A stretch of 64,000 nucleotides of DNA from an uncultured Actinomycetes bacterium (GCA_963711485.1 CAVQEM010000084.1:50180-114179), one strand, 5' to 3'. Positions 12,488-46,298 are shown, numbered from the stretch's first letter. Made by a program: numbers and translations. The notes: generated by a model not told the origin, from the sequence alone.

Positions 12488-13198
12488 ATGACCGGACCGG
12501 TGCCCAGTGGTATCGACGAGATCGGCTTGCTGCCCGGCAGTCACGTCTGCGCCTTCTACCGCGGTGATACCGATCGCGACCGGCTGCTGAACGGGTACCT
12601 CGGTGCGGGGCTCACCGCCGGGGACAAGTGCATCTGCGTCGTGGACTCCGCGGACACCGCGGAGCGGCTCGGGTCACTGCCCGGTGCCGGCCGCGGGCCC
12701 GGGCACTGCGCCGGCCAGCTGGACATCCACCTGCCCGAATCGACCTACCTGGCTGGCGGCGAGTTCACCACCAGCGACATGCTCACGTTCTGGACCGAGA
12801 GCATGGTCAAGGCAGAGGTCGAGGGTTACTCCTTCTGCCGTCTCGTCGGCGAGATGACGTGGGCGCTGCGCGACGCGCCCGGGGTCGAGCACCTGGTCAG
12901 CTACGAGTCGGAGCTGAACCGGGTCACCTCCAGTTACCCCGTCGTCGTGCTCTGCCTGTATGACCTGGACCGCTTCAGCGGCGAGGTCGTGGTCAACATC
13001 GTCAAGACCCACCCGCAGGTGCTGATCCAGGGCATCCTCGTGGAGAACCCGTACTACGTCGGGCCGGATGAGTTCCTCGCGCCGGATGAGCACCTCGGGC
13101 CGGGTGAGCACCTCAGGCCGCCGGGTGAGCACCTCGGGCCGGGCACCCCCCGGTCGGCCAGAACCGTGCCCGCGGCCCCCCGGTCGGCAAGTGCCTGA
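12488..13198 (+). CDS. MEDS-domain sensor protein (DcmR-like), copy 1
   Basis: SHVCAFYRGDTDRDRLLNGYLGAGLTAGDKCICV ... VVLCLYDLDRF ... THPQVLIQG. It is a paralogue of 25028..25721. Confidence 0.75.
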   Translation: MTGPVPSGIDEIGLLPGSHVCAFYRGDTDRDRLLNGYLGAGLTAGDKCICVVDSADTAERLGSLPGAGRGPGHCAGQLDIHLPESTYLAGGEFTTSDMLTFWTESMVKAEVEGYSFCRLVGEMTWALRDAPGVEHLVSYESELNRVTSSYPVVVLCLYDLDRFSGEVVVNIVKTHPQVLIQGILVENPYYVGPDEFLAPDEHLGPGEHLRPPGEHLGPGTPRSARTVPAAPRSASA

Positions 13199-13210: not shown

Positions 13211-14935
13211 ATGACCGCCGACCAGACATCCCGGAACACCGCGGCCGTGGTGCGGCTGCCCCGGCGTCCCGGCCGGCCTGCCGACGCGGACCTGCGCGAG
13301 CGGCTGGGTGAGTTCCGGGCCCTGCTGGTGATCTCGCTGCTGATGACCGAGTCCGTCAACGAGGAGCAGATCCTCGAACTGGCCGCCTCCAGCGCTCCCG
13401 GGCTCGGTCCCTGGCTGATCGAGGGCTACGGGTTCACCGACGGCCAGTGGCGTCCCGGACCGGGCCAGCCCGCGGCCGCGCCGGGCGGCCTGACCGGTCA
13501 GCTGGCCAGCCTGGGCAGCGCGGGCGGCCTGGTTGACCTGCCCGGCCGCCCGTGGGCGTGGGCCTACCCGCTGCGCGGCATCGCCGGGCCGCTCGGCCAC
13601 CTGGTCGCCTCCTGCGACGTGGAACCCTCCGCCGGGCAGCGGTTCATGATCCAGGTCATCGCGCAGCAGACGGGCGTGGCCGTATCCAACGCGCGGCTGC
13701 ACGCCCGGGAGCGCGCCACCGCGGCCGAACTCGCCGCCACCAACGAGGCGCTCGCCGAGAGCGTCACCACCCTGCAGCGCAGCATGGACATCCACCAGCG
13801 GCTGACCAGGGTGGCGGTCTCCGGCGAAGGCCAGCCCGGTATCGCCCGGGCCCTGCACGAGCTCACCGGGATGCCGGTCTCGATCGAGGACCGCTACGGG
13901 AACCTGACCGCCTGGGCCGGCCCCGGGCAGCCGGTCCCGTACCCGAAGGAGTCCTTCGCCCAGCGCGAGCACCTGCTCCGCCGGCTGATGCGGGCCAGCT
14001 CACCGACCCGGGACGGGGAGCGGCTCATCCTGCTCGCCTCGCCGCGGACCGACGTGATGGGGGTCCTGGCCCTCATCGACCCGGAGCGGCGCGCCGACCA
14101 CGCCGATCTCGTGGCCCTGGAGCACGGCGCGACCGTCTTGTCCATGGAACTGGCCCGGCTGCGCGGCATCGCCGACGCGGAACTGCGGCTGCGCCGCGAC
14201 CTGGTCCATGACCTGCTGGCCGGGACCGACGACGAGAGCGCGCTGACCCGCGCCGAGGCGCTGGACTACGACCTGCGGCGGCCGCACCGGGTGGTGATCG
14301 TGGAAGGCAAGGGCCGGGCCCGGGCCCACGATGCGCTGCTCAGCGCGGTCCGGCGGGCCATGCGCCAGGCCCGGCAGGACGGGCTGTTCGAAACCTGGTC
14401 CGGCAACGTCGCGGTGATCACCGCAGGCCAGACGGACTGGGAGCAGCTGCGCCGCGCGATCATGTCCGACCTCGGCGGACAGGTCCGCGTGGGGGTGGGC
14501 GGCACCGCGGGCCAGCCCTCCGAGCTGACCCGGTCCCTGCGCGAAGCCGGCCTCGCGCTGCGGCTGCAGAAGACACTGCTGCCCGGCAACAGCGCCTGCG
14601 AGTACCCCAAGCTCGGCATCTTCCGGATGCTGGCGGCCATCCCGGACCTCACCGACGTGGACTCGTTCGTCCGGGAGTGGCTCGGCAGCCTGCTCGACTA
14701 CGACGCGCGCCGCAAGGCCGAGCTGGTGCACACGCTGACCCAGTACCTGGAGCACGGCGGCAATTACGACGCCACCGCCGCCGCGCTGTCGGTGCACAAG
14801 AGCACGCTGAAGTACCGGCTGCAGCGGATCCGCGAGCTCACCGGCCTGGAGCTGAACGACCCCGACGTGCACTTCAACCTGCAGCTCGCCACCCGGGCGT
14901 GGGGCACGCTGCAGGCCCTGCACGACGAGCGCTGA
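13211..14935 (+). CDS. PucR/CdaR-family transcriptional regulator (GAF-like N-terminus, PucR C-terminal HTH), copy 1
   Basis: C-terminus YLEHGGNYDATAAALSVHKSTLKYRLQRIRELTG. Starts 12 nt after the MEDS gene. Confidence 0.8.
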   Translation: MTADQTSRNTAAVVRLPRRPGRPADADLRERLGEFRALLVISLLMTESVNEEQILELAASSAPGLGPWLIEGYGFTDGQWRPGPGQPAAAPGGLTGQLASLGSAGGLVDLPGRPWAWAYPLRGIAGPLGHLVASCDVEPSAGQRFMIQVIAQQTGVAVSNARLHARERATAAELAATNEALAESVTTLQRSMDIHQRLTRVAVSGEGQPGIARALHELTGMPVSIEDRYGNLTAWAGPGQPVPYPKESFAQREHLLRRLMRASSPTRDGERLILLASPRTDVMGVLALIDPERRADHADLVALEHGATVLSMELARLRGIADAELRLRRDLVHDLLAGTDDESALTRAEALDYDLRRPHRVVIVEGKGRARAHDALLSAVRRAMRQARQDGLFETWSGNVAVITAGQTDWEQLRRAIMSDLGGQVRVGVGGTAGQPSELTRSLREAGLALRLQKTLLPGNSACEYPKLGIFRMLAAIPDLTDVDSFVREWLGSLLDYDARRKAELVHTLTQYLEHGGNYDATAAALSVHKSTLKYRLQRIRELTGLELNDPDVHFNLQLATRAWGTLQALHDER

Positions 14936-15174: not shown

Positions 15175-16833
15175 ATGATCGACGTACGCAACCCGGGCGA
15201 CGGATTCAGGTCGTTGCGGGCGCGGATCGCCGCGCTCGGGACACTCGGCGACCGTGACCGCGGCGCGGACGGCGCCCCGCTGACTGTGGGCGAGTGGGCC
15301 CTGCTGATCGACGACATCGTGGACCACCCGGCGGACAACACCGAGGGCCTGTGGAACGTGGCCGGGCCGGACGAGGACAACCGCGAGTACGACGCGATCT
15401 TCGTGGGCGGCGGCGCGAGCGGCCGCTTCGGCTCGGCCTTCCTGAAGGCCCGGGGCGGCCGCCAGCTCACCATCGACGCGTGGCCGTTCCTCGGCGGCTC
15501 CTGCCCGCACCAGGCCTGCGTGCCGCATCACCTGTTCTCCGAGGCCGCCCGGGAGATGGACCTGGCCCGGCACATGCAGGGCCGCCTGTGGTACCCGCCG
15601 TTCGACGAGAAGCGGGCCAGCATCCAGGAGATCGTCGACCTGTTCAAGGCCGGCCGGATGTACCCGCACGCCATCATGAACTGGCAGTCCAAGGAACAGC
15701 TGGACATGGAGTTCATCCTGAACACCCCGGCCAGGATCATCGACGCCCACACGGTCGAGGTGGAGGGCCGCCGGTTCACCGCCCGGAACCTGGTGCTGTG
15801 CACCGGCGCGCGGACCAGGTACCCGGACATCCCCGGCATCGGGATCAAGGGCGTGTTCGACTTCGCCACGCTCATCGAGGACCTGGACTACGAGCCGAAC
15901 CGCTGCGTGATCATCGGCGGATCCAAGGTGGCCCTGGAGTACGGGTCGTTCTTCCAGGCCACCGGCTGCCAGACCACGATCCTGACCCGCAGCCCGCTGA
16001 TGGAGACGGCCAGCCTGCACCACGTGGACGCGGGCCTGCGCGAGTACGTGGTCGCGATGATGGCCGACCGGGGCATCGAGATCATCGAGGGTGCCGAACC
16101 GCTCGAGGTGCTCGGCAACGGCAAGGTCACGGGGGTCCGCTACCAGGAGCCGGGCGGCGCGATCCGGCAGATCGACACCGATTTCGTGTTCGTCGGCACC
16201 GGCGAGCGTCCCGACCTCAGCATGTACGCGCCCCTCGGGCTGGCCACCGACGAGCGAGGGTTCGTGATCGCGGACACCCACATGCGCACCTCGGTGCCCG
16301 GGGTGTACGCGGCCGGTGACCTGGTCGGCCCGCCGATGGAGATGTTCAAGGCGCGCAAGTGCGGGGTGGGCGCGGCCCGCAACATCATGGGCGAGGACTA
16401 CGAGTTCGACTTCACCGAGTACCCGGACTTCCTGCACACCACGTACGAGGTGACCTGGTGCGGCCTGTCCGAGGCGGAAGCGAAGGCGAAGTACCGGAAC
16501 GTGATCAAGATCCAGATGCCGCCGGACGACGCCGACCCGGAGACGTTCGCGCTCCCGGCCGCCGAGGGCTCGATGCTGTACGCGTTCACCCGGCCGATCC
16601 TGTCCGGCTGGCTCAAGCTGGTCATCGACGCGGACAGCCGCAAGGTCCTCGGCGCGCACCACGTCGGGTACGGGGCCAAGGACGCGTTCCAGTACATCGA
16701 CTACCTGATCCGCCTGCCCGAGGGCTTCACCATGGACCAGATGGCCGAGCTGAACGAGCTGTTCCTCAACCCGGAGCACTTCATCCAGCTGTGCCGGCTG
16801 CGCGCGGGCCAGAGCAGCCCGGTGAACCTGTGA
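15175..16833 (+). CDS. xecC: NADPH:2-ketopropyl-CoM oxidoreductase/carboxylase (2-KPCC)-type disulfide oxidoreductase
   Basis: GGAGGG RBS sits 6 nt upstream. Motifs: EYDAIFVGGGASGRFGSAFL, WPFLGGSCPHQACVPHHLF (redox CxxxxC), GPPMEMFKARK, GAHHVGYGAKDAFQY, and ELFLNPEHFIQLCRLRAG in place of the usual HPT..E His-Glu dyad. Confidence 0.85.
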   Translation: MIDVRNPGDGFRSLRARIAALGTLGDRDRGADGAPLTVGEWALLIDDIVDHPADNTEGLWNVAGPDEDNREYDAIFVGGGASGRFGSAFLKARGGRQLTIDAWPFLGGSCPHQACVPHHLFSEAAREMDLARHMQGRLWYPPFDEKRASIQEIVDLFKAGRMYPHAIMNWQSKEQLDMEFILNTPARIIDAHTVEVEGRRFTARNLVLCTGARTRYPDIPGIGIKGVFDFATLIEDLDYEPNRCVIIGGSKVALEYGSFFQATGCQTTILTRSPLMETASLHHVDAGLREYVVAMMADRGIEIIEGAEPLEVLGNGKVTGVRYQEPGGAIRQIDTDFVFVGTGERPDLSMYAPLGLATDERGFVIADTHMRTSVPGVYAAGDLVGPPMEMFKARKCGVGAARNIMGEDYEFDFTEYPDFLHTTYEVTWCGLSEAEAKAKYRNVIKIQMPPDDADPETFALPAAEGSMLYAFTRPILSGWLKLVIDADSRKVLGAHHVGYGAKDAFQYIDYLIRLPEGFTMDQMAELNELFLNPEHFIQLCRLRAGQSSPVNL

Positions 16834-17573
16834 TGCCGCCGCCACCGGACCATCCGCGGGTCGCCGTGGTCACCGGGGGCGCCTCCGGGATCGGCCTGGC
16901 CACCTGCGGGCGGCTGGCCGGCGAGGGCTTCACCGTGGCCGCGCTGGACATGAAGCCGGACGGCGCGGCCGGGACGGCGGCGATGGCTCTGCGCTGCGAC
17001 GTCACCGAGCCCGGCGACGTGGACCAGGCCATGAGCGAGGTCGCCGCGCGACTCGGCCCCATCGACGTCCTGGTCAACAACGCCGGCATCACCGGCTCCC
17101 AGGCCGCGGCTCGCTGCCACGAGACCCCGGTGGCGGAGTGGGACCGGGTCCAGGCGGTCAACGTGCGCGGCCCGTTCCTGTGCAGCCGCGCGGTGCTGCC
17201 GTCCATGATCGCTCGCGGGTCCGGCCACATCATCACGATCGCGTCGATCGCCGGGCTGGTCGCCTTCCCGGGCCGGTGCGCGTACACCGCGTCCAAGGGT
17301 GCGGCGCTGATGCTCACCCGGTCGATCGCGGTGGACTACGCGGCGGCCGGCATCCGGGCCAACGCCGTCTGCCCGGGCATGGTGTACACCCCGATGACCA
17401 GCTGGCGGCTGGACCAGCCGGACCTGCGGGCCCAGGTGGAAGACCGGATCCCGATGGGGCGGGTGGCCGAGCCCGCCGAGATCGCGGACGCGGTCGCGCT
17501 GCTGGCTTCCGGGCGGCTCGGCTACATGACCGGCCACCCGCTGGTCGTGGACGGCGGGATGTCAGCCCTGTAA
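16833..17573 (+). CDS. short-chain dehydrogenase/reductase (candidate 2-hydroxyalkyl-CoM dehydrogenase)
   Basis: TGGASGIG, NNAG and YTASK motifs. The start overlaps the 2-KPCC stop (TGATG). Confidence 0.8.
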   Translation: MPPPPDHPRVAVVTGGASGIGLATCGRLAGEGFTVAALDMKPDGAAGTAAMALRCDVTEPGDVDQAMSEVAARLGPIDVLVNNAGITGSQAAARCHETPVAEWDRVQAVNVRGPFLCSRAVLPSMIARGSGHIITIASIAGLVAFPGRCAYTASKGAALMLTRSIAVDYAAAGIRANAVCPGMVYTPMTSWRLDQPDLRAQVEDRIPMGRVAEPAEIADAVALLASGRLGYMTGHPLVVDGGMSAL

Positions 17574-17626
17574 GCGCAGGGACCGGCGGCGGACGGTTTT
17601 CGTTGCGGAAAAAAAGGCGGGACACG

Positions 17627-18400
17627 ATGACAGGCAAGCTGACGGGCAAGACAGCCGTGGTGACCGGGGCGGGGTCGGGGATCGGCCGGGCCGCCGCCAC
17701 GCTGTTCGCCCGCGAGGGCGCGGCGGTGGCGGTGCTGGACCTCGACGCCGACGCGGCCAAGACGGCGGCGGAGGAGATTACCGCCTCCGGCGGCACGGCG
17801 ATCGCCGTCGCGGCGAACGTCGCCGACCGGCTGCAGGTCGCCAGCGCCTTCGACCAGGTCTCTAACGGCTTCGGGCGTATCGACGTGCTTTACAACAACG
17901 CGGGTGTGAACAGCAGCGGGTCGGTCATCGACGCCAGTGACGATGACTGGGACCGGAGCTTCGCGGTGAACGCAAAGGGCACGTTCCTGTGCTCCCAGGC
18001 CGCCGCGCCGTCGATGGTGGCGGCCGGCGGCGGGTCGATCATCAACCAGGGCTCGGTCGCCGCCCTGGTCGGCATCGCGAACTTCGCCTCCTACTGCGCG
18101 TCCAAGGGGGCGGTGGTCGCGCTGACCAGGTCGATGTCCGTGGACCTGGCCCCGCGCGGGGTCCGGGTCAACGTGATCTGCCCGGGCACGGTGTACACGC
18201 CGCTGATGGAGCCCATGCTGCGGGCCCGCGGTGGCGGGGACATGGCGGCCGGGCTGGCGCTGACCGTGGCCAAGTACCCGATCGGCCGGCTCGGCACGCC
18301 GGAGGAGATCGCCGCGGTCGCGCTGTTCCTGGCCAGCGACGACTCCTCGTTCCTGACCGGCTCGGTGATCACCGCGGACGGCGGCATGACTTCCCAGTGA
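17627..18400 (+). CDS. short-chain dehydrogenase/reductase (second candidate 2-hydroxyalkyl-CoM dehydrogenase)
   Basis: TGAGSGIG, NNAG and YCASK motifs. It is the third gene of the 2-KPCC operon. Confidence 0.8.
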   Translation: MTGKLTGKTAVVTGAGSGIGRAAATLFAREGAAVAVLDLDADAAKTAAEEITASGGTAIAVAANVADRLQVASAFDQVSNGFGRIDVLYNNAGVNSSGSVIDASDDDWDRSFAVNAKGTFLCSQAAAPSMVAAGGGSIINQGSVAALVGIANFASYCASKGAVVALTRSMSVDLAPRGVRVNVICPGTVYTPLMEPMLRARGGGDMAAGLALTVAKYPIGRLGTPEEIAAVALFLASDDSSFLTGSVITADGGMTSQ

Positions 18401-18717: not shown

Positions 18718-20437
18718 GTGGTCCTGCTCCGCAGCCAGCTGACCAACCTGCGGGCGCTCCTGGTGCTGTCCATCCTGATGACCGAGAGCGCGGACGACCA
18801 GCAGATCCTGCGGCTGGCCACGTCCGCGGCCGCCTCACTGGGCAGCTGGCAGATCGCGGGTTTCGTGATCGGGGACGCGTGGTGGGCCGGCAGCCGCCGC
18901 TGCGGCGCCCCCGGCCCGGAGCTGGCCGCCGAGCTCCAGGCCCTGCCCGAGGCCGGCGGGCCAGTGACCAGCCTGGACGCCGGGTGGGCCTGGGCGTACC
19001 CGTTGCGGAGCATCGCGGGGCGGCTCGGCCACCTGATCGTGCACGCCGCGCGCGAGCCCGCGGTCGAGGAACAGTTCCTGGCCCAGGTGCTCGCCCAGCA
19101 GACCGGGGTGGCGGTATCCAACGCCCAGCTGCACGTGCGGGAGCGGGACATCGCGGAGCAGCTGGCCGCCACCAACGGCGCGCTCGAGGAGACGGTCGCC
19201 ACGCTGCGCCACGGCATGGCCATCCACGAGCGGCTCACCCGGGTCGCAGCGGCCGGCGAGGGCGCGGCCGGCATCGCCGAGGCGCTGCACGACCTGACCG
19301 GGCTCGCGGTCGCGGTGGAGGACCGCTACGGCAACCTGTCCGCGTGGTCCGGCCCGGGCCAGCCGGCCCGGTACCCGAAACTCGCCGCCTACGAGCGGGA
19401 GCAGCTGCTGCGCCTGCTGATGACCGCCGGCCGGTCGGTCCGCGACGGCGACCGCGTGGTCGCCCTGGCTTCGCCCCGCCCCGGCGTGCTCGGGCTGCTC
19501 GCCCTGATGGATCCCGGGCACCAGGCGGGCACCACGGACGTGATGGCCCTGGAGCACGGCGCCACCGTCCTCGCCGTCGAGCTGGCCCGGCTGCGCGGGC
19601 TGGCCGACACCGAACTGCGGGTCCGCCGCGAGCTGGTGCACGACCTGCTGACCGGCACCGACGACGAGAGCGCCCGCCTGCGCGCCGAGGCGCTCGGGTA
19701 CGACCTGGGGCGGCCGCACCAGGTGGCGGTGGTGGAGGTGGCCGAGAGCTCGCCGGCCCAGGAGGAGGTGCTGCACGCCACCCGCCGGGTGCTGCGCCAC
19801 CAGCACCGGCCCTGCCTGCTGGGCAGCATGGCGGGCACGGTGGTGATCGTGGCGCCAGCCATTTCGCCGGCCGCGCCGGGTGCGCCGGATGCGCCGGGTG
19901 GGCCGGGTGGCCTGCCACGGCGACCGCGCCGGCTGGGAAGCGCTGCGCGCCGGCATCGTGGCCGAGCTGGGCGGCAGCCGCTGCCGGATCGGCGTCGGCG
20001 ACGCCTACCCGCGGCCCTCGGAGCTGTCCCGCTCGCTGCGCGAGGCGCGGCTCGCGCTGCGGATGCAGGAGGCGTCCGCGTCGGCCGAGCGGACCTCGGT
20101 GTTCGCGGACCTCGACGTGCTGCGGATGCTGGCCGCGGTGGACGACCTGACCGATGTGGAGGCGTTCGTCCTCAAGTGGCTCGGCACGCTGGCGTCCTAC
20201 GACGAGCGCAAGCACACCGAGCTGGTCAAGACGCTGATCCAGTACCTGCAGCACGGCGGCGGGTACGAGGCCACCTCCCGGGCGCTGTCCGTGCACCGCA
20301 GCACGCTGAAGTACCGGCTGCAGCGGATCCGCGAGCTGACCGGCTTCGACCTGGGCAACCCCGAGACCCACTTCAACCTGCAGCTCGCGACCCGGGCCTA
20401 CGTGACCCTCCAGGCCCTCGGCGATACTCCGGCCTGA
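18718..20437 (+). CDS. PucR/CdaR-family regulator, copy 2, with a frame break near 19905-19915
   Basis: The N-terminal 380 aa (frame of 18718) and C-terminal 170 aa (frame of 19880, ...YLQHGGGYEATSRALSVHRSTLKYRLQRIRELTG) are both collinear with copy 1. The break lies in a gcgccgg-rich repeat. Confidence 0.7.
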
Positions 20438-20533
20438 ACCGGGGCGGCCTGAGCCTGCGTGTCGCACGGACTGCGCTCGGTTGGGCCTGCCAGGACGAGG
20501 CCCGGTGCGCGGCGCCACCGTAGCGTCCTGGCC

Positions 20534-21634
20534 ATGGACGGCAGCGCCAGCCCGGGGGAACGGCCCCCCGCCCCGCTTTCCCGGGGGACTTCCCCCGGAG
20601 CCCCCGGCCCCCGCACGTCGCCGGCCCGGAGGGAACACGCCTCCGGCGCGCCCCCCCTCGCCGGCGCGGATGAGCTGGAACTGTTCGCGCAGATGTGTTT
20701 CCTGCGGCGTTTCGAGGAGCGGGTTGACACGCTGTACCGGCAGGGCCAGATCCACGGCCCGGTGCACCTGGGGCTCGGCCAGGAGGCCATCGCCGTCGGG
20801 GCCGCGTCCGTGCTCCGCCCCGGCGACTACTCGCTGGGCACCTACCGGGGGCACGCGCACGCGCTGGCCCGGGGCGCCCCGGCCGACGCGGTCCTGGCCG
20901 AGCTGCTCGGCCGCGAGGGCGGGATCTGCGGGGGCAAGGGCGGCTCCATGCACATCACCAGCGTGGAGCACGGCTACTACGGCTCCTACGCCATCGTCGG
21001 CGCGCACCTTCCGATCGCCTGCGGCCTGGCCTGGGCGGCCCGGATCCGCCGCAGCGGGCAGGTCACCGCGTGCTTCTTCGGCGACGGGACCACCAACATC
21101 GGCGCGTTCCACGAAGCGGTCAACCTGGCCGCGGTGTGGCGGCTGCCGGTCGTGTTCGTGTGCGAGAACAACTGGTACATGGAGTACACCCCGATCGGGC
21201 ACGTGATCCCGGTCGGGCTGCCCGCCGCCGACCGGGCCGCCGCCTACGGACTGCCCCCGATCGTGGTCGACGGCAACGACGTCGCCGCGGTCCGGCAGGT
21301 GGTCGGCGACGCGGTCCGCGCCGCCCGGGACGGTGACGGGCCGAGCCTGATCGAGGCGCAGACCTACCGGCTCAAGGGCCACTCGGCCGCGGATGCCGCC
21401 GCGTACCGCCCGGCGGAGGAAGTGGCCCGCTGGCGCGAGCGGGATCCGCTGCTGCTCGCCCGGGCCACGCTGGTGGCCGACGGCACGGCCGCGGAGAAGC
21501 TGGACGAGATCGACACGCGGATCAAGGCCGACCTGGCCGAGCTGGCCCAGCAGGTGCTGGCCCGGCCCGTCCCCGACCCGGCCGGGGCCTGGACCGACGT
21601 GTGGAGCGATGGGAGCTGGCAATGGCGGAACTGA
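20534..21634 (+). CDS. TPP-dependent 2-oxoacid/acetoin dehydrogenase E1 alpha subunit
   Basis: GQIHGPVHLGLGQEA, GKGGSMH, and the TPP motif FFGDGTTNIGAFHEAVNLAAVWRLPVVFVCENN. Confidence 0.8.
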   Translation: MDGSASPGERPPAPLSRGTSPGAPGPRTSPARREHASGAPPLAGADELELFAQMCFLRRFEERVDTLYRQGQIHGPVHLGLGQEAIAVGAASVLRPGDYSLGTYRGHAHALARGAPADAVLAELLGREGGICGGKGGSMHITSVEHGYYGSYAIVGAHLPIACGLAWAARIRRSGQVTACFFGDGTTNIGAFHEAVNLAAVWRLPVVFVCENNWYMEYTPIGHVIPVGLPAADRAAAYGLPPIVVDGNDVAAVRQVVGDAVRAARDGDGPSLIEAQTYRLKGHSAADAAAYRPAEEVARWRERDPLLLARATLVADGTAAEKLDEIDTRIKADLAELAQQVLARPVPDPAGAWTDVWSDGSWQWRN

Positions 21635-22635
21635 CCTACCGGCAGGCCGTCGCCGCCGCGCTGGCCCAGGAGATGGCCCGGGACGACCGGGTCGTGCTGC
21701 TCGGCGAGGACGTCGGCTCCGGCGGGGTGTTCAAGACCACCGGGGGCCTGCGTGAGCGGTTCGGGGCGGACCGGGTCTGGGACACGCCGATCTCCGAGCA
21801 GGCCATCGCGGGTGCCGCCATGGGCGCGGCCATGGCCGGGCTGCGGCCGGTGGCCGAGATCATGTTCGCCGACTTCTACGCGACCTGCTGGGACCAGGTA
21901 GCCAACGAGATCGCGAAGGTCCGTTACATGACCGGCGGCCAGGTCAGCCTGCCGCTCGTGCTGCGCGGCGCGAACGGCTCCGGCGGGCTGGGGTTCGGCA
22001 GCCAGCACGGCCAGTCGGTGGAGAACTGGGCCATGACGGTGCCCGGGCTGAAGATCGCCTCACCGGCCGGCCCGGCCGAGGCGTTCGGGCTGCTCGCCGC
22101 GGCCATCCGGGACGACGACCCGGTCATGGTGCTCGAGCACAAGGCGCTGTACGGGCGGAAGGAGGCCATGCCGGAAGGTGGGCCCGACGGTGAGCTTGTG
22201 CTGCCGCTGGGCCAGGCGCGGATCGTGCGCCCGGGCGCCGACGTGACCCTGGTCGGGCTGTCCATCACGGTCGGCACCTGCGTGGCCGCGGCCGCCGAGC
22301 TGGCCGCCGAGGGCATCGAGGCCGAGGTCATCGACCTGCGGACGCTGGTGCCGCTGGACGTGGCCACGGTGCTCGGCTCGGTCGCGCGCACCGGGCGTCT
22401 GGTCGTGGTGGAGGAGAACCCGGGCCAGCTCGGCTGGGGGGCCTCGGTCGCGGCCATCGCGGCGCAGGAGGCGTTCGGCTCGCTCACCGCCCCGGTCACC
22501 CGGGTCAGCGGCGGCAACGTGCCGCTGCCGGTGGCCGCGTCCCTCGAGGCCGAGGTAGATGTGACCGCAGCGCGCGTGGTCGCGGCCAGCCAGGCGGTGC
22601 TGGCCGGCGGCCGGGAGCCGAGCGGAACCCGGTGA
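21622..22635 (+). CDS. TPP-dependent dehydrogenase E1 beta subunit
   Basis: MAELTYRQAVAAALAQEMARDDRVVLLGEDVG..., DTPISEQAIAG. Overlaps the alpha subunit by 13 nt. Confidence 0.85.
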   Translation: MAELTYRQAVAAALAQEMARDDRVVLLGEDVGSGGVFKTTGGLRERFGADRVWDTPISEQAIAGAAMGAAMAGLRPVAEIMFADFYATCWDQVANEIAKVRYMTGGQVSLPLVLRGANGSGGLGFGSQHGQSVENWAMTVPGLKIASPAGPAEAFGLLAAAIRDDDPVMVLEHKALYGRKEAMPEGGPDGELVLPLGQARIVRPGADVTLVGLSITVGTCVAAAAELAAEGIEAEVIDLRTLVPLDVATVLGSVARTGRLVVVEENPGQLGWGASVAAIAAQEAFGSLTAPVTRVSGGNVPLPVAASLEAEVDVTAARVVAASQAVLAGGREPSGTR

Positions 22636-22757: not shown

Positions 22758-23870
22758 ATGCTAGTGGGCCATGAAGACGTCCTGCTTCCCACCACGATGG
22801 TCGGGAACTATCCCAACCCGCGCTGGTACGACGGGTACGCGCACTCGAAGCTTCCGCCCGGGGCCCTGGTGTATGACTCGCTGACCCGGGAGGCCTACGA
22901 GGACGCGATCCTCGCGGTGGTGCACGACCAGGAGTCCGCCGGGCTGGACATCATCTCCGACGGCCGCGTGCACGGCGGTGACAGCCCGTACGCCCAGGTC
23001 GTGTACCACTATTTCGAGCGGCTGCGCGGGTACGAGATCGACGGGCCCCAGCTTGGGCTGCCGATCTACTCGACGCTGTTCTCCCCCACCGTGGTGGGCG
23101 AGGTGTCCAGGCGCACCTCGTTCGCGATGCCGACCCTGCGCGCGGTGCGCAAGGCGACCAAGAAGCCGGTGAAGATCTCCTACCAGGGCATTCACGTGCT
23201 CGCGGCCGCGTCCAACGACCTGTTCTACAAGGACATGAAGGAACTGGCGACCGCCATCGCGAAGGCCTATCACGAAGACTTCCTGGAGCTCGCGGAGGCG
23301 GGGGCAGAGATCATCCAGCTGGATGAGTTCCTCTGGCCGTACGAGATGAATGACTGGCAGGTCGAGGTCTTCAACCTGGCCGTGGACAATGTCCCCGGCG
23401 TGCAGTTCTGGGTGCACACCTGCTGGGGGAACTACGGCGGCACCCCGGGTTACCTGCCGGACGACACCGAGCAGGAGTACGGGGCATACGTGCTGGCCAG
23501 CCGGCAGGCGGACACGGCGGCCCCCAACCGGGCCTTCGGCATCTTCCCGAAGGTCAAGGAGGCCCACCTGACCGCGCTGAACTGGGAGGTCGGCCGGACC
23601 GGCCCGGACGACCTGAAGCCGCTCGCCGAGAACAACTGGGATAGGGACTTCGTGGCGGGCGTGATCGACGTGAAGTTAACCATCACCGAGACCGCGGATG
23701 AGGTCGCGGACCGGATCCGGCAGTGCCTGGAGTACGTGCCGGCCGAGCGGCTCGGGCTGACCACCGACTGCGGCCTGGTCATGCTGCAGCGGATGACGGC
23801 GCAGAACAAGCTCCGCTCGCTGGCCGAAGGCGCGGCCAAAGTCCGGGCGGAACTCGGCCAGCCGGGCTGA
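22758..23870 (+). CDS. MetE-fold (Meth_synt_2) zinc alkyltransferase, epoxyalkane:CoM transferase-like, copy 1
   Basis: AAGGAGG RBS, 370 aa. Zn ligands are H220-x-C222 (FWVHTCWGN) and C338 (TTDCGL). About 65% identical to 44196..45299. Confidence 0.75.
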   Translation: MLVGHEDVLLPTTMVGNYPNPRWYDGYAHSKLPPGALVYDSLTREAYEDAILAVVHDQESAGLDIISDGRVHGGDSPYAQVVYHYFERLRGYEIDGPQLGLPIYSTLFSPTVVGEVSRRTSFAMPTLRAVRKATKKPVKISYQGIHVLAAASNDLFYKDMKELATAIAKAYHEDFLELAEAGAEIIQLDEFLWPYEMNDWQVEVFNLAVDNVPGVQFWVHTCWGNYGGTPGYLPDDTEQEYGAYVLASRQADTAAPNRAFGIFPKVKEAHLTALNWEVGRTGPDDLKPLAENNWDRDFVAGVIDVKLTITETADEVADRIRQCLEYVPAERLGLTTDCGLVMLQRMTAQNKLRSLAEGAAKVRAELGQPG

Positions 23871-23919: not shown

Positions 23920-24960
23920 ATGGAAATTCGTGGCGAAGAAGTCCTGCTCCCCGTCTCGGCGGTGTCGGCGTTCCCCCGGCCGCACTGGCTGCAGGGGCGC
24001 GTCCTCGGCTCGCTGAGCGAACCGGTGTACCGCAGCCACAACCTGCGGGTGGCCTACGAGGATGCCTGTCATATCTGCGCGGACGAGCAGGAAAAGGCCG
24101 GGCTGGACATCCTGTGCGACGGCGCCCAGTACTACGAGTGGGAAGCGCCCGGCTTCCAGCTGGAGCCGATCTTCCACTTCATCCCGGAGAACCTGGGCGG
24201 CTTCCGGCCGTACGGTCCCCCTGGTGAGGGTGCCAAGTACCGGCCGTTCTACCAGGCCGTGGTCAAGGACAAGATCACCTGGGAGCGGCCCATCTTCGAG
24301 AGCGTGGTCATGACCATGCAGAACGTCACCGACAAGCCGTTCAAGGTGGCGTTCCTCGGCCCGGCCCAGCAGAGCGTCATCGTCAAGGACGAGTACTACG
24401 GCGACCAGATCGCGGTGGCCCGGGATCTGGCCATCGCGCTCAATCAGGAGCTGAAGTACCTCGTCAGCATCGGGCTGGAGGCGGTGCAGCTGATCGACGT
24501 GCTGGCGCCGTACACCACGGACATGTGGCAGATCGAGATGCAGAACATCCTGTTCGACGGCGTGGACGCGATCAAGTTCTGGCACATCTGCTACGGCAGC
24601 GTGGACGGCCAGCGGGACATCTTCGACAACCACGCCACCTCGATGATGCCGCTGTTCAAGGAGTCGCCCGCCGATGTGATCCACCTGGAGTTCACCAACA
24701 AGGGCTTCGACGAGCTGGAGGCGTTCCGCGACTTCCCCACCGACAAGGTGCTCGGCGCGGGCGTGGTGGACGCGAAGAACCTGCAGGTCGAGACCGCCGG
24801 GCAGATCGAGCGCCGGATCAGGCGCGTGCTGGAGGTCGTCCCGGCCGACCGGCTGCTGGTGGCACCGGACTGCGGGCTGGGGTACTTCAGCCGGACCGCC
24901 GCCTACGCCAAGCTCCGCAACATGGGGCAGGCGGCCGAGACCGTCCGAAGCACCCTGTGA
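23920..24960 (+). CDS. divergent MetE-fold zinc alkyltransferase
   Basis: 346 aa. Keeps H-x-C (FWHICYGS) and the distal Cys (APDCGLGY), but is otherwise far from the two EaCoMT-like copies. Confidence 0.7.
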   Translation: MEIRGEEVLLPVSAVSAFPRPHWLQGRVLGSLSEPVYRSHNLRVAYEDACHICADEQEKAGLDILCDGAQYYEWEAPGFQLEPIFHFIPENLGGFRPYGPPGEGAKYRPFYQAVVKDKITWERPIFESVVMTMQNVTDKPFKVAFLGPAQQSVIVKDEYYGDQIAVARDLAIALNQELKYLVSIGLEAVQLIDVLAPYTTDMWQIEMQNILFDGVDAIKFWHICYGSVDGQRDIFDNHATSMMPLFKESPADVIHLEFTNKGFDELEAFRDFPTDKVLGAGVVDAKNLQVETAGQIERRIRRVLEVVPADRLLVAPDCGLGYFSRTAAYAKLRNMGQAAETVRSTL

Positions 24961-24966
24961 CCAGGG

Positions 24967-25027: not shown

Positions 25028-25721
25028 ATGCGTATGACCGCAGAGGTGGGCCGCGAGGTGCTGGGCCTGCAGCTGCGCGTGGGCGATCACATCTGCGGCT
25101 TCTACCGCCAGCCCTCCGAGCGTGATGACATCCTCATCCCCTTCCTGATCGAGGGGCTCAAGGCGGGTGACAAGTGCACCTGCGTGGTGGACAGCTGCAC
25201 CCCGGAGGACGTGCTGGCCGGCATGGCCGAGCACATCGAGGTGGAGCCCTACCTGTCAGACCGCCAGCTCGAGGTGCTCGACTCCTACGGGACCTATCTG
25301 GCCGAGGGTGGCTTCCTGCCTGAGCGGATGCTGAAGTTCTGGGAGGGCAAGGCCCGCCAGAGCCTGGGCGGGGAGCGGCCCGGAGGCGGGGAGGCGGGGC
25401 GGGGAGCGGCCCGGAGGCGAGGAGCAGGTCAGCCCGGACGCCCCCATGCGGGCCCGGAACATCGGGGACATGAGCTGGGCGCACCGCGACGAGGCGGTGG
25501 TCAGTGACCTGATGGGCTACGAATCCGAGCTGAACCGGATCATGTCGAACTTCCCCCAGGTCAACCTCTGCCTCTACGACCTGACCCGGTGCTCCGGGGA
25601 CCTGATCATGGACGTGCTGAAGACGCACCCCAAGGCGCTGCTCGGCGGCATGGTTATCGACAACCCGTACTACCTGGACCCCGACGAGTTCCTGGCCAGC
25701 AGGCTGGACCGTGACAGCTGA
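25028..25721 (+). pseudogene. MEDS-domain protein, copy 2, disrupted by a 31-nt tandem duplication
   Basis: The N-terminal part is in the frame of 25028 and the C-terminal part (GYESELNRIMSNFPQVNLCLYDL...) in the frame of 25446. Deleting 25367-25397 restores a single ORF. Confidence 0.75.
25367..25428 (+). repeat. 31-nt imperfect tandem duplication (28/31 identical)
   Basis: ggcggggagcggcccggaggcg occurs twice exactly 31 nt apart. Confidence 0.9.
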
Positions 25722-26555: not shown

Positions 26556-28082
26556 TCACCGGCCGTAGGCGTGCCAGTGCGCGCCGAACAGGGCTTCCTC
26601 GCTGATCGTCTTGGGCTCGATGGGCCGGGACACCCAGGTCAGGTTGACGAAGTGCCGCGCGTTGACGTTCTCGGTGGTGATGTTGCCGCCCCAGGCCCCG
26701 CAGCTGAGGCTGAGCGTGAACGGCAGGCCGTTGCGCGGGCTGCCCGCCCCCTCGTTCATGTTCTGGTTCACCAGCACGCGGGCGGTCCGGGTCGTCAGGG
26801 CCAGCCGTTCCACGTTCGCGTCCGAGCTGCTGTGGATGCCGCAGGTGTGGCCGAGCCCCTGGTAGGCGGTGATGGCGTTGACGAGGTCCGCGGCGGCGCT
26901 GATGCCGCCCTCGTACCGGTAGACGGCCAGCACCACGGACAGCTTCTCGCCCGAGAACGGATGATCCGGGCCGGTGCCCGTCTCCTCGACCATGATCATC
27001 GGGCAGGCCGGATCGAGCCCGAAGCCGGCCAGCCCCGCGATGTGCGCCGCGGACTTCGCCACCACGGCGGCCGCGGGCACCGGGCCGCCGTCCGGCCACA
27101 TCACCTGGCGCAGCGCCTCCTTCTGCTCCGCGTCGCACCGGTGCGCCCCGGCCTCGGTCAGCCGCCAGACCAGCTCGTCGTATACGTCCGCGTGGACGAC
27201 CAGGGCGTTGTCGGCCAGGCAACTCGTGGCGTAGTCGAAGGTCTTCGCGGCGAGGATGGCGGAGGCCGCGTCGGCCAGGTCAGCGGTCTCGTCCACCACA
27301 TGCACGGCGTTGCCCACCCCCACCCCGTAGGCCGGGGTGCCGGAGCTGTACGCGGCGTGCACCATGCCCGCGCCGCCGGTCGCGACGATCAGGTCAGCCT
27401 GGCGCATCAGCTCCTGGGTCTTCGGCAGCGACGGCGCGGGCAGCGACTGGACCAGGTCCGCGGGCGCGCCGACCTGCTCGCACGCGGCCCGCATGAACCC
27501 GGCCACCGCCTCGGTGGCGCCGGTGGTCCGCGGGTGCGGCGCGCAGATGATCGCGTTCCGGCCCTTGAGCGCGAACAGCGCCTTGACCGGCGGGGTCGCG
27601 TCCGGCCCGGTGGTCGGGATCAGCGCGGCGACCACCCCGACCGGCTTGGCGATTTTCACCAGGCCGGCCGAGGGCAACTCCTCCACGACCCCGACGGTCC
27701 GCAGCCCGGTCATGTCGGCCAGCACGCCGGTCACCCGTTTGTTGATCTTCGCGACCTTGTCCGTGTAGTTGCCGAACCCGCCCTCGTCCACGGCGAGCCG
27801 GGCCAGCGCCTCGGCGTGGTCCTTGCGCACCACAGCCCAGGCCACCGCCGTGACCAGCTCGTCCACCTGCTCCTGGGTGTAGGACTCGATGGCGCGGGCG
27901 GCCGTGCGGGCCCGGGCCACGACCGCCGCGACCTCGCTGGCCACCGGGCTGGCTTGCGCCGCGCTGGCTCCTGCCGGGCTGGCTCCTGCCGGGCTGGCTT
28001 GCGCCGGGCTGGGGCCCGCCGGGCTGGCCGTCTCAGGGCTGGCCACCACGGGGCCGTGCTTGCTGCTGCTGCGCTCCGTCAT
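26556..28082 (-). CDS. CoA-acylating aldehyde dehydrogenase (EutE/SucD/SauS-like)
   Basis: 508 aa starting at MTERSSSKHG. Motifs IPTTGPDATPPVKALFALKGRNAII and TFDYATSCLADN (catalytic Cys). The N-terminus carries a 15-nt repeat. Confidence 0.8.
   Translation of the reverse strand: MTERSSSKHGPVVASPETASPAGPSPAQASPAGASPAGASAAQASPVASEVAAVVARARTAARAIESYTQEQVDELVTAVAWAVVRKDHAEALARLAVDEGGFGNYTDKVAKINKRVTGVLADMTGLRTVGVVEELPSAGLVKIAKPVGVVAALIPTTGPDATPPVKALFALKGRNAIICAPHPRTTGATEAVAGFMRAACEQVGAPADLVQSLPAPSLPKTQELMRQADLIVATGGAGMVHAAYSSGTPAYGVGVGNAVHVVDETADLADAASAILAAKTFDYATSCLADNALVVHADVYDELVWRLTEAGAHRCDAEQKEALRQVMWPDGGPVPAAAVVAKSAAHIAGLAGFGLDPACPMIMVEETGTGPDHPFSGEKLSVVLAVYRYEGGISAAADLVNAITAYQGLGHTCGIHSSSDANVERLALTTRTARVLVNQNMNEGAGSPRNGLPFTLSLSCGAWGGNITTENVNARHFVNLTWVSRPIEPKTISEEALFGAHWHAYGR
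27946..28050. repeat. 7 x 15-nt tandem repeat (gggctggctcctgcc-like) encoding SPAGA pentapeptides in the ALDH N-terminus
   Basis: Read directly from the sequence. Confidence 0.85.
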
Positions 28083-28214: not shown

Positions 28215-29624
28215 GTGATGGGAGCACGGGTGGCACGGCTCGTGGTGATCGGCGGCGGCGCCGCCGGGATGTCGGCCGCCTCGGCGGCCCGGCGCACCGA
28301 CCCCGGCCTCGACGTGGTGGTCTGCGAGGCAGGCGGCTTCGCCGCCTACGGCATGTGCGGGATCCCGTATTACCTGGGGGGCACCGTCGCAGCGCCGGAG
28401 GACTTGCTCGCCTATCCCCCGTCTGCCTTCCGCGAGGAGCGCGGCATCGACCTGCGGCTGCACACCCGGGTCACCGGGATCGACCCGGCCGCCCGGCAGG
28501 TGCGGCTGGCCGCCGGGACTCCCGCGGCGCAGGCTCCATCGGCCACCACGGGGGAGCCGCTGGCTTACGACGCGCTGGTGGTGACCAGCGGCGCCGACCC
28601 GGTCCGCCCGCCGATACCCGGCCTCGACGACCGCCGCGTGTTCACGATCCGGTCCCTGGACGAGGCGATCGGGCTGCGGCGGCTGCTGGCCAGCCGCACC
28701 ATGCGCCGCGCGGTCGTGGTGGGTGCCGGGTACGTCGGCCTGGAGACCGCGGAGGCCCTGGTCTGCGCGGGCGTGGACGTGGAGGTAGTCGAGGCGCTGC
28801 CCGGGGTGCTGGGCACCGTGGACGAGCCAGTCGCCGCGCTGGCCCAGGCCGAGGTCGAGCGGCACGTGAAGCTGCGGCTCGGCGCCCGGCTGGAGGCGGT
28901 GGACCAGGGCAGCACCCCGGCCGGCTGCCTGACCGCGGTGGTGGAAGGCGAGGAGATCCCCGCCGACGTGGTGGTCATCGCGGTTGGCGTCCGCCCCGCC
29001 ACGGACCTGCTGATCCAGGCGGGTGCCAGGCACCTGCCGGATGGGTCGGTGGTGGTGGACGCCGGGATGCGCACCTCGCTGCCGGACGTGTTCGCGGCGG
29101 GGGACGCGGTCGCGCTGCCGCACCTGGTGCTGGGCCGCCCCGCCTGGGTCCCGCTCGGTCCCGCCGCCAACAAGACCGGCCGGGTGGCCGGGACCGTGGC
29201 CGCCGGGGGGACCGCCTCGTTCCGGGGCGTGGTCGGCACCGCGGTGGTGAAGGTCTTCGACCTGGAGGTGGCCCGGACCGGGCTGGGGCTGGCCGAGGCG
29301 CAGGCGGCCGGGCTGGATGCGGTGGCGACCGACGAGGTGTCCCGGTCCCGGGCCAAGTACTACCCGGGCAGCTCGCCGCTGCACGTCCGGCTGGTGCACA
29401 CCCGGGAGGGGCGGCTGCTCGGCGGGCAGCTCGCGGGCCGGGAGGGCGCCGCCAAGCGTGTCGACGTGCTGGCCACCGCGCTGCATGCCGGGTTCAGCGT
29501 GGAGGACCTGGCGGCGCTCGACCTCAGCTACGCCCCGCCGTTCGCGCCGGTCTACGACCCGGTGCTGGCCGCCGCCATCAAAGCCACCCGCGGTCTGGCC
29601 GCGTTCACTGGAGGATCCCCATGA
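28215..29624 (+). CDS. FAD-dependent pyridine nucleotide-disulfide oxidoreductase, CoA-disulfide reductase / NADH oxidase class
   Basis: LVVIGGGAAGMSAA, a single active-site Cys in AAYGMCGIPYY, a second Rossmann VVVGAGYVGLE, and AAGD. Transcribed divergently from the ALDH. Confidence 0.75.
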   Translation: MMGARVARLVVIGGGAAGMSAASAARRTDPGLDVVVCEAGGFAAYGMCGIPYYLGGTVAAPEDLLAYPPSAFREERGIDLRLHTRVTGIDPAARQVRLAAGTPAAQAPSATTGEPLAYDALVVTSGADPVRPPIPGLDDRRVFTIRSLDEAIGLRRLLASRTMRRAVVVGAGYVGLETAEALVCAGVDVEVVEALPGVLGTVDEPVAALAQAEVERHVKLRLGARLEAVDQGSTPAGCLTAVVEGEEIPADVVVIAVGVRPATDLLIQAGARHLPDGSVVVDAGMRTSLPDVFAAGDAVALPHLVLGRPAWVPLGPAANKTGRVAGTVAAGGTASFRGVVGTAVVKVFDLEVARTGLGLAEAQAAGLDAVATDEVSRSRAKYYPGSSPLHVRLVHTREGRLLGGQLAGREGAAKRVDVLATALHAGFSVEDLAALDLSYAPPFAPVYDPVLAAAIKATRGLAAFTGGSP

Positions 29625-30553
29625 GCCTGCGCCCACCGGCCGACAAGCGGGCCAGCCTGGCCGACGCGGCCGCCCTGGTCATCGACGGCGCCATGGTCGC
29701 GCTCGGCGGTGGCCTGTCCGCCCGGCTGCCCATGGCCCTGGTCCGCGAGCTGGTCCGGCAGCGCCGGAGCGGCCTGCACCTGGTCGGGTCGGCGCACAGC
29801 ATCGACGTGGACATGCTCGTGGGTGCCGGGGCCGTCCGCCGGTGCGAGGAAAGTTACGTCGGCTTCGAGCAGGACCTCGGGCTGGCTCCCGCGTACCGCC
29901 GGGCCGCCGAGGAGGCCACGATCGAGGTGGCGGAGAGCTGCTGCGCCACGATCCTGGCCCAGCTGCGGGCGGCCGAGATGGGGGTGCCGTTCCTGCCCGT
30001 CCGCGGGGTCCGCGGCTCCGACATCGTCCGGCTGCACCCCGAGTACGCGGAGGTCACCTGCCCGTTTACCGGGGAGACACTGGTCGCCGTGCCCCCGCTG
30101 CGCCCCGATGTGGCGCTGCTGCACGCGCCGTCCGGGGACCGCTACGGCAACCTGCACCTGGAGCAGCCGTACGTGCTGGACGAGCGGTTCGCCTCCGCGT
30201 CACGGATGGTCATCGCGACCGTCGACGAGCTGGTCTCCACCGAGCAGGTGACCGCGGCAGGCGTCACCGTCCCCGGGCACCTGGTGGCGGCCGTCGCGCA
30301 CGTCCCGTTCGGGGCCCATCCGGCGTCCTGCTACCCGCGCTACGCCTATGACCGCAGCCACCTGCGTGAGTACGTGGCCGCGGCCCAGTCCGGGCCGGAG
30401 GGCCTGGACAAGTACCTGGCCGCCTACGTGCAGGACAGCGAGGAGAGCTACCGGGGCGCGATCGGCCCCGACCGGCTCTCCCGGCTGGCCGCCTGGTCCC
30501 GGTCCACCGACGCGTGGCAGGAGCTGTTCTCACAGGCGGGAGACTCCGCATGA
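29621..30553 (+). CDS. CoA-transferase subunit A (glutaconate-CoA-transferase-like)
   Basis: ASLADAAALVIDGAMVALGGG ... GDRYGNLHL. ATGA overlap with the upstream gene. Confidence 0.8.
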   Translation: MSLRPPADKRASLADAAALVIDGAMVALGGGLSARLPMALVRELVRQRRSGLHLVGSAHSIDVDMLVGAGAVRRCEESYVGFEQDLGLAPAYRRAAEEATIEVAESCCATILAQLRAAEMGVPFLPVRGVRGSDIVRLHPEYAEVTCPFTGETLVAVPPLRPDVALLHAPSGDRYGNLHLEQPYVLDERFASASRMVIATVDELVSTEQVTAAGVTVPGHLVAAVAHVPFGAHPASCYPRYAYDRSHLREYVAAAQSGPEGLDKYLAAYVQDSEESYRGAIGPDRLSRLAAWSRSTDAWQELFSQAGDSA

Positions 30554-46297: not shown

Positions 46298-46298
46298 C

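Follow-up and report, generated by a model that had tools for sequence, protein, structure and literature searches.

Coenzyme M (CoM) use in bacteria is still considered rare, and 2-KPCC (2-ketopropyl-CoM oxidoreductase/carboxylase, EC 1.8.1.5) is, to our knowledge, the sole carboxylase in the disulfide-oxidoreductase superfamily. On the Xanthobacter plasmid the enzyme (XecC in strain Py2) is encoded in the gene order xecC-xecD-xecE. In this enzyme Phe501 and His506 occupy the place that a His-Glu dyad has in other disulfide oxidoreductases, His506 and Arg365 flank an anion pocket, and substitution of the dyad moves the enzyme away from carboxylation (PMC8358701). Homologues with the same key residues are found on plasmid pNOCA01 of Nocardioides JS614 (NOCA_RS00610) and on plasmids of Mycolicibacterium chubuense NBB4, where they are described as the ethene/vinyl-chloride 'CoM reductase/carboxylase' and where the clusters include etnEABCD. 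The clusters of methanotrophs such as Methylohalobius crimeensis hold a CoM epoxide pathway, CoM biosynthesis genes and a MEDS-type regulator but no alkene monooxygenase dedicated to the pathway, and in these organisms the methane monooxygenase co-oxidises ethylene to the epoxide (PMC11507031). In this study, we report on a 64,000-nucleotide stretch of DNA from an uncultured Actinomycetes bacterium (GCA_963711485.1 CAVQEM010000084.1:50180-114179), hereafter called the window, in which an open reading frame (ORF) at positions 15175-16833 is probably a true 2-KPCC orthologue, predicted from its sequence to act last in a CoM-dependent epoxide pathway whose genes also lie in this window.

The gene is a new addition to a known enzyme family and lies in a cluster of a known type, and the retention of the Phe/His pair is in itself only modestly interesting. 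Greater novelty attaches to the widespread arrangement without a monooxygenase in soil Streptosporangiales, and to a module composed of E1 alpha, E1 beta and a MetE-like protein, termed here MetE2.

The 2-KPCC homologue and its catalytic residues

Comparison of the 552-residue translation with all PDB chains by phmmer returned the Py2 2-KPCC structures 1MO9, 1MOK, 2C3C, 2C3D and 3Q6J as the top matches (E 4.2e-178). The dyad mutants 7MGN and 7MGO ranked after these, and the best match outside the KPCC family was a mercuric reductase (E 8.5e-35). The alignment runs from end to end with small indels only (query residues 35-551, chain residues 10-522), and this sequence match is far above chance. 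Identity is 54-55% to Py2 XecC, with which the protein shares its fold and length class, and 67-68% to the Nocardioides JS614 homologue; relative to XecC the window protein has approximately 29 extra N-terminal residues. The ORF has a GC content at third codon positions (GC3) of 0.97, in DNA of actinobacterial type with a window GC of approximately 72%, and the encoded protein ends in ...MAELNELFLNPEHFIQLCRLRAGQSSPVNL, followed by the stop codon.

A preliminary description of this DNA had read the C-terminal motif ELFLNPEHF (nt 16756-16782) as the counterpart of ELFLNPTHF, the sequence that it gave for the Xanthobacter enzyme, and had named as a possible objection that the segment might not be homologous to the dyad position. 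The sequence given there matches the PDB chain, and the two motifs align column for column within a gapless, homologous segment, 'elflnpehfiqlcrlrag' in the window protein pairing with 'elflnpthfiqlsrlrag' in Py2. Phe501 corresponds to Phe530 (codon at nt 16762-16764) and His506 to His535 (nt 16777-16779), and the claimed replacement of the His-Glu dyad by these two residues agrees with the published account of the Xanthobacter enzyme (PMC8358701). The redox-active cysteines were likewise found in the described context, WPFLGGSCPHxACVPHH, where 'wpflggscphqacvphh' of the window protein is paired with 'wpflggscphnacvphh' of Py2 (redox-loop context WPFLGGSCPHQACVPHH in the window protein versus WPFLGGSCPHNACVPHH in Py2). 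The two cysteines, Cys110 and Cys115, are equivalent to Cys82 and Cys87 and lie in GGSCPHQACVPHH, so that the redox pair needed by a 2-KPCC is present.

Conservation of individual residues was determined in an alignment of the window protein, Py2 XecC, the JS614 homologue and 79 orthologues from related loci; a scan of species-representative genomes had yielded 80 such loci, 49 of them flanked on each side by 9 kb or more (full-flank loci). In Py2 numbering, Arg56, Phe57, Cys82, His84, Cys87, His137, Met140, Arg365, Phe501, His506 and Gln509 are invariant in the complete sequences, and Met361 is present in 81 of the 82 aligned homologues. The equivalents of Arg56, Phe57, His84 and His137 in the window protein are Arg84, Phe85, His112 and His165, and those of Met140, Met361, Arg365 and Gln509 are Met168, Met390, Arg394 and Gln538. 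Following the 2002 structure paper, we take Arg56 to be the CoM-sulfonate-binding arginine; His84 and His137 are assigned to enolate stabilisation, and Met140 and Met361 to the substrate pocket. The preliminary description had proposed the sulfonate arginines and the methionine pocket as a check, and the equivalents of Arg56, Arg365, Met140 and Met361 are all kept; the window protein and Py2 XecC do not differ in the redox pair, the Phe/His pair, the sulfonate arginines, His84/His137 or Met140/Met361.

The window protein differs from XecC at two positions close to these residues. Asn85 in the CxxxxC loop is replaced by Gln (Gln113, nt 15511-15513), as in 80 of the 82 homologues, and Thr505, just before the dyad His, is replaced by Glu (Glu534, nt 16774-16776) at a position where 75 of 78 homologues have Glu or Asp. 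An acidic residue beside His506 may tune the pKa of this histidine.

The Phe/His pair is a family trait, expected here and unsurprising to a specialist. Since none of the 78 homologues aligned there departs from it, the ethene/vinyl-chloride enzyme of JS614 included, it is a marker of the family and not of the substrate (2-ketopropyl-CoM versus 2-ketoethyl-CoM). Its use as a discriminator of propylene-type and ethene-type enzymes was dropped for the same reason.

Glutathione reductase, dihydrolipoamide dehydrogenase and mercuric reductase share the Pyr_redox_2 and Pyr_redox_dim domains and the CxxxxC centre with the window protein, in which Pfam identified Pyr_redox_2, Pyr_redox and Pyr_redox_dim. 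The ORF could thus be read as a generic flavoprotein disulfide reductase (an E3, mercuric, glutathione or mycothione reductase) that lies beside E1 genes by chance. The names given to its relatives by JGI vary, many being '2-oxopropyl-CoM reductase (carboxylating)' and many 'dihydrolipoamide dehydrogenase (E3)'; genes for E1 alpha and E1 beta lie 4 kb downstream, and on a Vulcanimicrobiaceae contig (L087) the homologue holds an E3-like position. Classical disulfide oxidoreductases, however, have the His-Glu dyad, in place of which the window protein has Phe/His, and CoM-sulfonate arginines are present in it. The homologues on L087 and on a further contig (L086) retain the full set of KPCC residues, and the curated NCBIfam models for disulfide oxidoreductases score far under their cut-offs (MerA 169 versus 454, lipoamide dehydrogenase 146 versus 409). 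The generic reductase is hence hardly credible and is effectively refuted by the sequence. The earlier claim of a carboxylase acting on a 2-ketoalkyl-CoM gains support at the level of sequence, and the CoM-pathway context presented below points independently to a CoM-thioether as the substrate.

Neighbouring genes and the predicted pathway

Two short-chain dehydrogenases/reductases (SDRs) lie directly downstream, as the preliminary description had stated, and the stop codon of the KPCC gene overlaps the start codon of SDR1 as TGATG. For SDR1, the top PDB match was the R-specific hydroxypropyl-CoM dehydrogenase (R-HPCDH) 2CFC (E 3.8e-72), with the runner-up 25 orders of magnitude behind (7e-47). 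The protein retains the triad Ser142/Tyr155/Lys159 required of an R-HPCDH (Ser139/Tyr152/Lys156 in the window) as well as Arg152 and Arg196 (Arg149 and Arg193 in the window), which are the sulfonate ligands of R-HPCDH; those of the S-specific enzyme (S-HPCDH) are Arg205 and Lys208 in 4ITU numbering (PMC11199699). For SDR2, the top match 4GH5/4ITU (E 4.3e-58) leads the runner-up (2.5e-55) only marginally; the equivalent of Lys208 is kept, and the Arg205 position is taken by Thr, both in the window protein and in each of the 67 actinobacterial orthologues. Because of the missing ligand and the marginal match, SDR2 was classed as S-HPCDH-like and not as a member of S-HPCDH. The description had taken the two genes for an R- and S-specific pair; the R-specific half of this claim is firm and the S-specific half is not. 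Just upstream of the Thr in SDR2 there is a 3-residue insertion (RARGxGD; residues ~203-222, nt 18190-18260 region), which the 67 orthologues share, and its two arginines may stand in for the lost Arg205.

KPCC is followed first by the R-type and then by the S-type SDR, as in the Xanthobacter xecC-xecD-xecE genes, the overlapping stop and start codons included. The JS614 orthologues share 66% identity with SDR1 and 70% with SDR2, the latter value applying to both JS614 SDRb and SDRc. The SDR pair is no evidence for propylene as the growth substrate, because ethene degraders also have the pair and 2-hydroxyethyl-CoM is achiral.

Genes of the window were called by GC3, annotated with Pfam and NCBIfam, and searched by tblastn with JS614 and Py2 proteins (Table 1). 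An accessory set of the etn type is present, with EtnR1/EtnR2, CoA-transferase A and B, acyl-CoA synthetase (ACS), aldehyde dehydrogenase, a reductase resembling CoA-disulfide reductase (CoADR) and the xcb genes, and it corresponds gene for gene to that of JS614 pNOCA01 (MEDS, PucR, SDRa, SDRb, CoADR-like reductase, two CoA-transferases, ACS, aldehyde dehydrogenase and xcb). The CoA-transferase/synthetase set is a signature of ethylene-type and not of propylene-type pathways (PMC6440738). Py2 has CoM biosynthesis genes near KPCC, as does the window, but lacks the acylating aldehyde dehydrogenase, the CoA-transferases, the ACS and the second reductase. In comparison with JS614 and NBB4, only the window has a second epoxyalkane:CoM transferase (EaCoMT) and the E1 alpha/beta and MetE2 module, to which a separate regulator pair belongs.

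Judged by homology, the MEDS and PucR pair is the counterpart of EtnR2/EtnR1, a system that responds to epoxide; in Mycobacterium NBB4, EtnR1/EtnR2 activate the pathway on ethylene oxide and not on ethylene (PMC11197473). The window contains three MetE-type paralogues, each with the His-X-Cys...Cys zinc triad, and two of these (the EtnE orthologue and MetE1) belong to EaCoMT by their MetE-type domain and the invariant zinc ligands His218, Cys220 and Cys341. The EtnE orthologue and five xcb genes are located approximately 10 kb beyond the first block. XcbA (408 bits, cut-off 150) and XcbD (674 bits, cut-off 600) were identified by their NCBIfam models, which also matched the XcbC fragment and ComA; bacterial CoM biosynthesis proceeds via XcbA-E (PMC9457059). 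The aldehyde dehydrogenase fits a predicted CoA-acylation of a sulfonate-tailed aldehyde, e.g. 2-ketoethyl-CoM.

Table 1. Coordinates of the features identified in the window and of monooxygenase genes in related loci
Feature	Coordinates	Strand	Basis
MEDS-domain sensor (EtnR2-like)	12500..13198	+	Pfam MEDS E 1.2e-41; 48% identity to JS614 MEDS protein
PucR/CdaR-type activator (EtnR1-like)	13211..14935	+	Pfam HTH_30 and GGDEF_2; 51% identity to JS614 homologue
2-KPCC-family CoM-thioether reductase/carboxylase (predicted)	15175..16833	+	552 aa; PDB 1MO9 match, identities, residue set
Redox-active C110-P-H-Q-A-C115 (= C82...C87)	15502..15519	+	Cys, His, Cys unchanged in 82/82 homologues
F530-L-N-P-E-H535 (= F501...H506), Phe/His for His-Glu dyad	16762..16779	+	Invariant in 78/78 aligned homologues
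SDR1, R-HPCDH-like dehydrogenase	16830..17573 (alternative start 16833)	+	PDB 2CFC match, conserved residues
SDR2, S-HPCDH-like dehydrogenase	17612..18400	+	4GH5/4ITU best PDB match
Second EtnR1-like PucR regulator (PucR2)	18718..20437	+	Split, apparent frameshift near 19860-19934
Thiamine pyrophosphate (TPP)-dependent dehydrogenase E1 alpha	20693..21634	+	Pfam E1_dh E 1e-72; start codon uncertain, possibly upstream
E1 beta	21622..22635	+	Pfam Transket_pyr and Transketolase_C; NCBIfam E1 beta subfamily 335 bits, above 321 cut-off
EaCoMT paralogue (MetE1)	22764..23870	+	66% identity to JS614 EtnE, 49% to Py2 XecA; Zn triad kept
MetE2, distinct MetE-like Zn protein	23920..24960	+	346 aa; 29% identity to EtnE; Zn triad kept
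Second MEDS (EtnR2-like) gene (MEDS2)	25064..25721	+	Split over two frames
CoA-acylating aldehyde dehydrogenase, SauS-like	26556..27944	-	NCBIfam SauS 524 bits, below 600 cut-off; 73% identity to JS614 homologue
Second FAD disulfide reductase, CoA-disulfide-reductase-like	28242..29624	+	53% identity to JS614 homologue
CoA-transferase subunits A and B	29621..31393	+	B split, apparent frameshift at ~30900
NDP-forming acyl-CoA synthetase (ACS)	31387..33567	+	Annotation and JS614 comparison
EaCoMT (EtnE orthologue)	44196..45299	+	78.5% identity to JS614 EtnE; Zn triad kept
CoM biosynthesis: xcbB/comA, xcbA, xcbD, xcbE, xcbC	45473..51362	+	Pfam, NCBIfam, tblastn; xcbE and xcbC each split
Locus with monooxygenase, Streptosporangiaceae metagenome-assembled genome (MAG)	L032:1454-5506		
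Locus with monooxygenase, Kribbella orskensis	L063:11906-15845		
Locus with monooxygenase, Chloroflexota MAG	L065:5770-9819		

From what the sequence shows, namely homology, conserved residues, gene content and synteny, we propose a route in which EaCoMT would add CoM to an epoxide, and SDR1 and SDR2 would oxidise the 2-hydroxyalkyl-CoM to the ketone or aldehyde. The Cys110/Cys115 pair of the FAD- and NADPH-dependent enzyme would then reductively cleave the thioether of the 2-ketoalkyl-CoM to give CoM and an enolate. Phe530 and His535, with Arg394, are predicted to exclude protons and to bind CO2 and the anionic product, the enolate being converted to a beta-keto acid, and this step would regenerate CoM. 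The product may be passed to CoA metabolism by the SauS-like dehydrogenase, the CoA-transferase and the ACS, with XcbA-E supplying the CoM and the MEDS and PucR proteins presumably turning the genes on upon exposure to epoxide. Because these genes make up a set of ethene/vinyl-chloride ('etn') type, 2-ketoethyl-CoM, giving malonate semialdehyde, is the leading candidate and most likely the physiological substrate; 2-ketopropyl-CoM, giving acetoacetate, is a plausible alternative or additional substrate.

A different outcome of the same cleavage has to be weighed here, in which the C-S bond is broken without net CO2 fixation. The enolate would be protonated to acetaldehyde, which the adjoining acylating aldehyde dehydrogenase would convert to acetyl-CoA, or the substrate would be CoM-S-acetyl-CoA made by the SauS-like dehydrogenase, giving acetyl-CoA/malonyl-CoA. 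Such a scheme suits an ethene-type cluster with CoA-transferases, an ACS and a conserved SauS-like acylating dehydrogenase (524 bits; 32 of the 49 full-flank loci), and it suits the literature, in which ethene metabolism ends in acetyl-CoA and the intermediate steps are proposed (PMC8727900, PMC6440738). The clade-wide invariance of the proton-excluding Phe and of the His and Arg of the anion pocket would, however, be difficult to account for with a dispensable carboxylation, and in the Xanthobacter enzyme it is the dyad substitution that diverts the reaction from carboxylation (PMC8358701). We consider cleavage without net CO2 fixation unlikely, and a carboxylating 2-KPCC orthologue remains the preferred assignment.

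Points against the assignment, and the distribution of the cluster

Several points weigh against the ORF being a carboxylating 2-KPCC at the end of a working epoxide pathway. We know of no enzyme of the actinobacterial clade that has been assayed so far. The replacements of Asn85 by Gln and of Thr505 by Glu set this clade apart from Py2. SDR2 is without one of the S-HPCDH sulfonate ligands, and the five apparent frameshifts described below, should they be real, could leave some of the pathway without function. The step after 2-ketoethyl-CoM is given in the literature as a proposal only (PMC8727900, PMC6440738). Lastly, no alkene monooxygenase that would supply the epoxide was found in the window or in most of the related loci.

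The search for an alkene monooxygenase by tblastn with JS614 EtnA-D found none in the 64-kb window, which hence does not show the soluble di-iron alkene monooxygenase genes etnABCD beside etnE that characterise an etn cluster such as those of JS614 and NBB4, and Pfam detected no oxygenase domain of any type in the called genes or gap ORFs of the window. Among the 80 related loci, etnABCD-like genes occur within 10 kb of KPCC in only three (Table 1). The methanotroph clusters resemble the window in having no dedicated alkene monooxygenase; no oxygenase comparable to their methane monooxygenase was seen in the window.

Five genes of the window are split, namely PucR2 (~19860-19934), MEDS2 (25345-25452), CoA-transferase B (30899), xcbE (48942) and xcbC (50706-50782). 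Both halves of each split gene have high GC3, high identity to intact orthologues and no internal stops. The two junctions that could be mapped exactly, 30899 and 48942, both lie on the 9-mer CGGGCCGGC, which occurs 19 times in the window, counting both strands; the other three junctions are located too loosely to bear on the 9-mer. As both exact junctions fall on CGGGCCGGC, a systematic sequencing error is favoured over gene decay, and the pattern suggests a motif-linked, possibly methylation-linked, long-read basecalling error behind the frameshifts. The genes for KPCC, both SDRs, both EaCoMTs, E1 alpha, E1 beta, XcbA, XcbB and XcbD are intact.

These observations bear on the possibility that the window holds the decaying remnant of an alkene-degradation island, in which the monooxygenase has been lost, pseudogenes have formed and the intact KPCC is now without function. 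The absence of etnABCD from the 64 kb, the frameshifts in PucR2, MEDS2, CoA-transferase B, xcbE and xcbC, and the fragments of an S9 peptidase and of IS66 elements would be expected of such a remnant. The halves of the split genes are nevertheless conserved without internal stops, the exact junctions lie on the 9-mer, and the core genes are intact. Dozens of independent MAGs moreover have the same monooxygenase-less layout, at 75-97% identity, which implies purifying selection, and we regard decay as very improbable.

The closest loci, at 85-97% identity, belong to MAGs of uncultured soil Actinomycetes and Streptosporangiaceae. More distant ones were found in Amycolatopsis (~80%), Geodermatophilaceae (75%), and Kribbella and Mycobacterium sp. 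SM1 (68-69%). The neighbourhood is well conserved in the full-flank loci, with SDR1 and SDR2 each in 45 of 49, MEDS in 47 and PucR in 48; the aldehyde dehydrogenase is present in 32 of these loci and E1 alpha/beta with MetE2 in 31. The protein database contains at least 997 relatives at E <=1e-50. Carriage of this type of EaCoMT cluster by Amycolatopsis, Kribbella, Nocardioides, Rhodococcus and Mycolicibacterium has been reported, with the 'CoM reductase carboxylase' step named as a proposal (PMC8727900).

A complete KPCC/EaCoMT/Xcb system with intact catalytic determinants is thus common in uncultured soil actinomycetes, mostly without an adjoining monooxygenase. This widens the likely ecological reach of CoM-dependent turnover of epoxides (ethylene and propylene oxide), and of CO2-coupled detoxification, in soils, and the diverse intact orthologues provide material to probe the role of the enzyme in the ethene-type pathway.

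The E1 alpha/beta and MetE2 module

The module that distinguishes the window from JS614 and NBB4 spans 18718-25721 and consists of a PucR regulator, E1 alpha, E1 beta, an optional EaCoMT paralogue, MetE2 and MEDS. The NCBIfam model for the E1 alpha of pyruvate dehydrogenase (PDH) scores 327 bits with E1 alpha, below its cut-off of 394, and the best PDB match is human PDH E1 alpha. MetE2 is without the ~22-residue insertion of EaCoMT and forms a tight family, the members of which are typically 346 residues long; in the related loci compared, it always occurs together with E1 alpha/beta.

The position of the module varies among genomes. In one locus (L077), E1 alpha, E1 beta and MetE2 come straight after KPCC, and one Nocardioides genome has the xcb genes first, then aldehyde dehydrogenase, PucR, E1 alpha, E1 beta, MetE2 and MEDS. 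No E2 gene was found in the window or in the 80 related loci. On contigs from Solirubrobacterales and Vulcanimicrobiaceae the module gains a lipoyl E2; the order on L087 is EaCoMT, MetE2, E1 alpha, E1 beta, E2, KPCC, SDR, SDR, CoA-transferases and xcb genes, and L084 and L085/L086 also carry the module. Overall, it was found in KPCC clusters of at least three phyla-level lineages. The module was not found in the Py2, JS614 and NBB4 systems, MetE2 gave only 29% cross-matches to EtnE on annotated plasmids, and no description of the module in CoM clusters was found in literature searches.

Two roles were considered for the module and rejected. The first, E1 alpha/beta as an analogue of sulfopyruvate decarboxylase in CoM biosynthesis, was discarded on the grounds that the published XcbA-E route has no TPP step (PMC9457059) and that all five xcb genes are present. 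The second, KPCC as the E3 of an E1/E2 system, was discarded since the homologues on L086 and L087 have the full KPCC residues and no His-Glu dyad. Candidate reactions include one on a CoM-thioether keto compound, either its oxidative decarboxylation or an acyloin-type cleavage, and the capture by CoM of an electrophile that is not a simple epoxide. It is a tentative suggestion, which we hold to be possible and not probable, that the cluster is a monooxygenase-independent, epoxide-sensing CoM system with a recruited E1/MetE2 module, in which MetE2 would be a divergent zinc thiol-alkyltransferase and a second EaCoMT is often included, possibly a new branch of bacterial CoM chemistry. If true, such a branch would occur widely among the uncultured Streptosporangiales of soil.

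On the Vulcanimicrobiaceae contig (L087:6985-11784), KPCC occupies the E3 slot of an operon of the order E1 alpha, E1 beta, E2, E3, and KPCC may have arisen from, or displaced, the E3 in such an operon.

Directly upstream of the EtnE-xcb operon of the window, at 41919-44094, lie a LuxR-type response regulator on the minus strand and a receiver/HisKA_3 hybrid protein, which may add a further regulatory layer for this operon. The stretch that separates the MetE2 module from the aldehyde dehydrogenase contains a C-terminal fragment of an S9 peptidase (26142-26516), and two fragments of IS66-family transposases are found at 59245-60207; these fragments hint at past rearrangement around the cluster.

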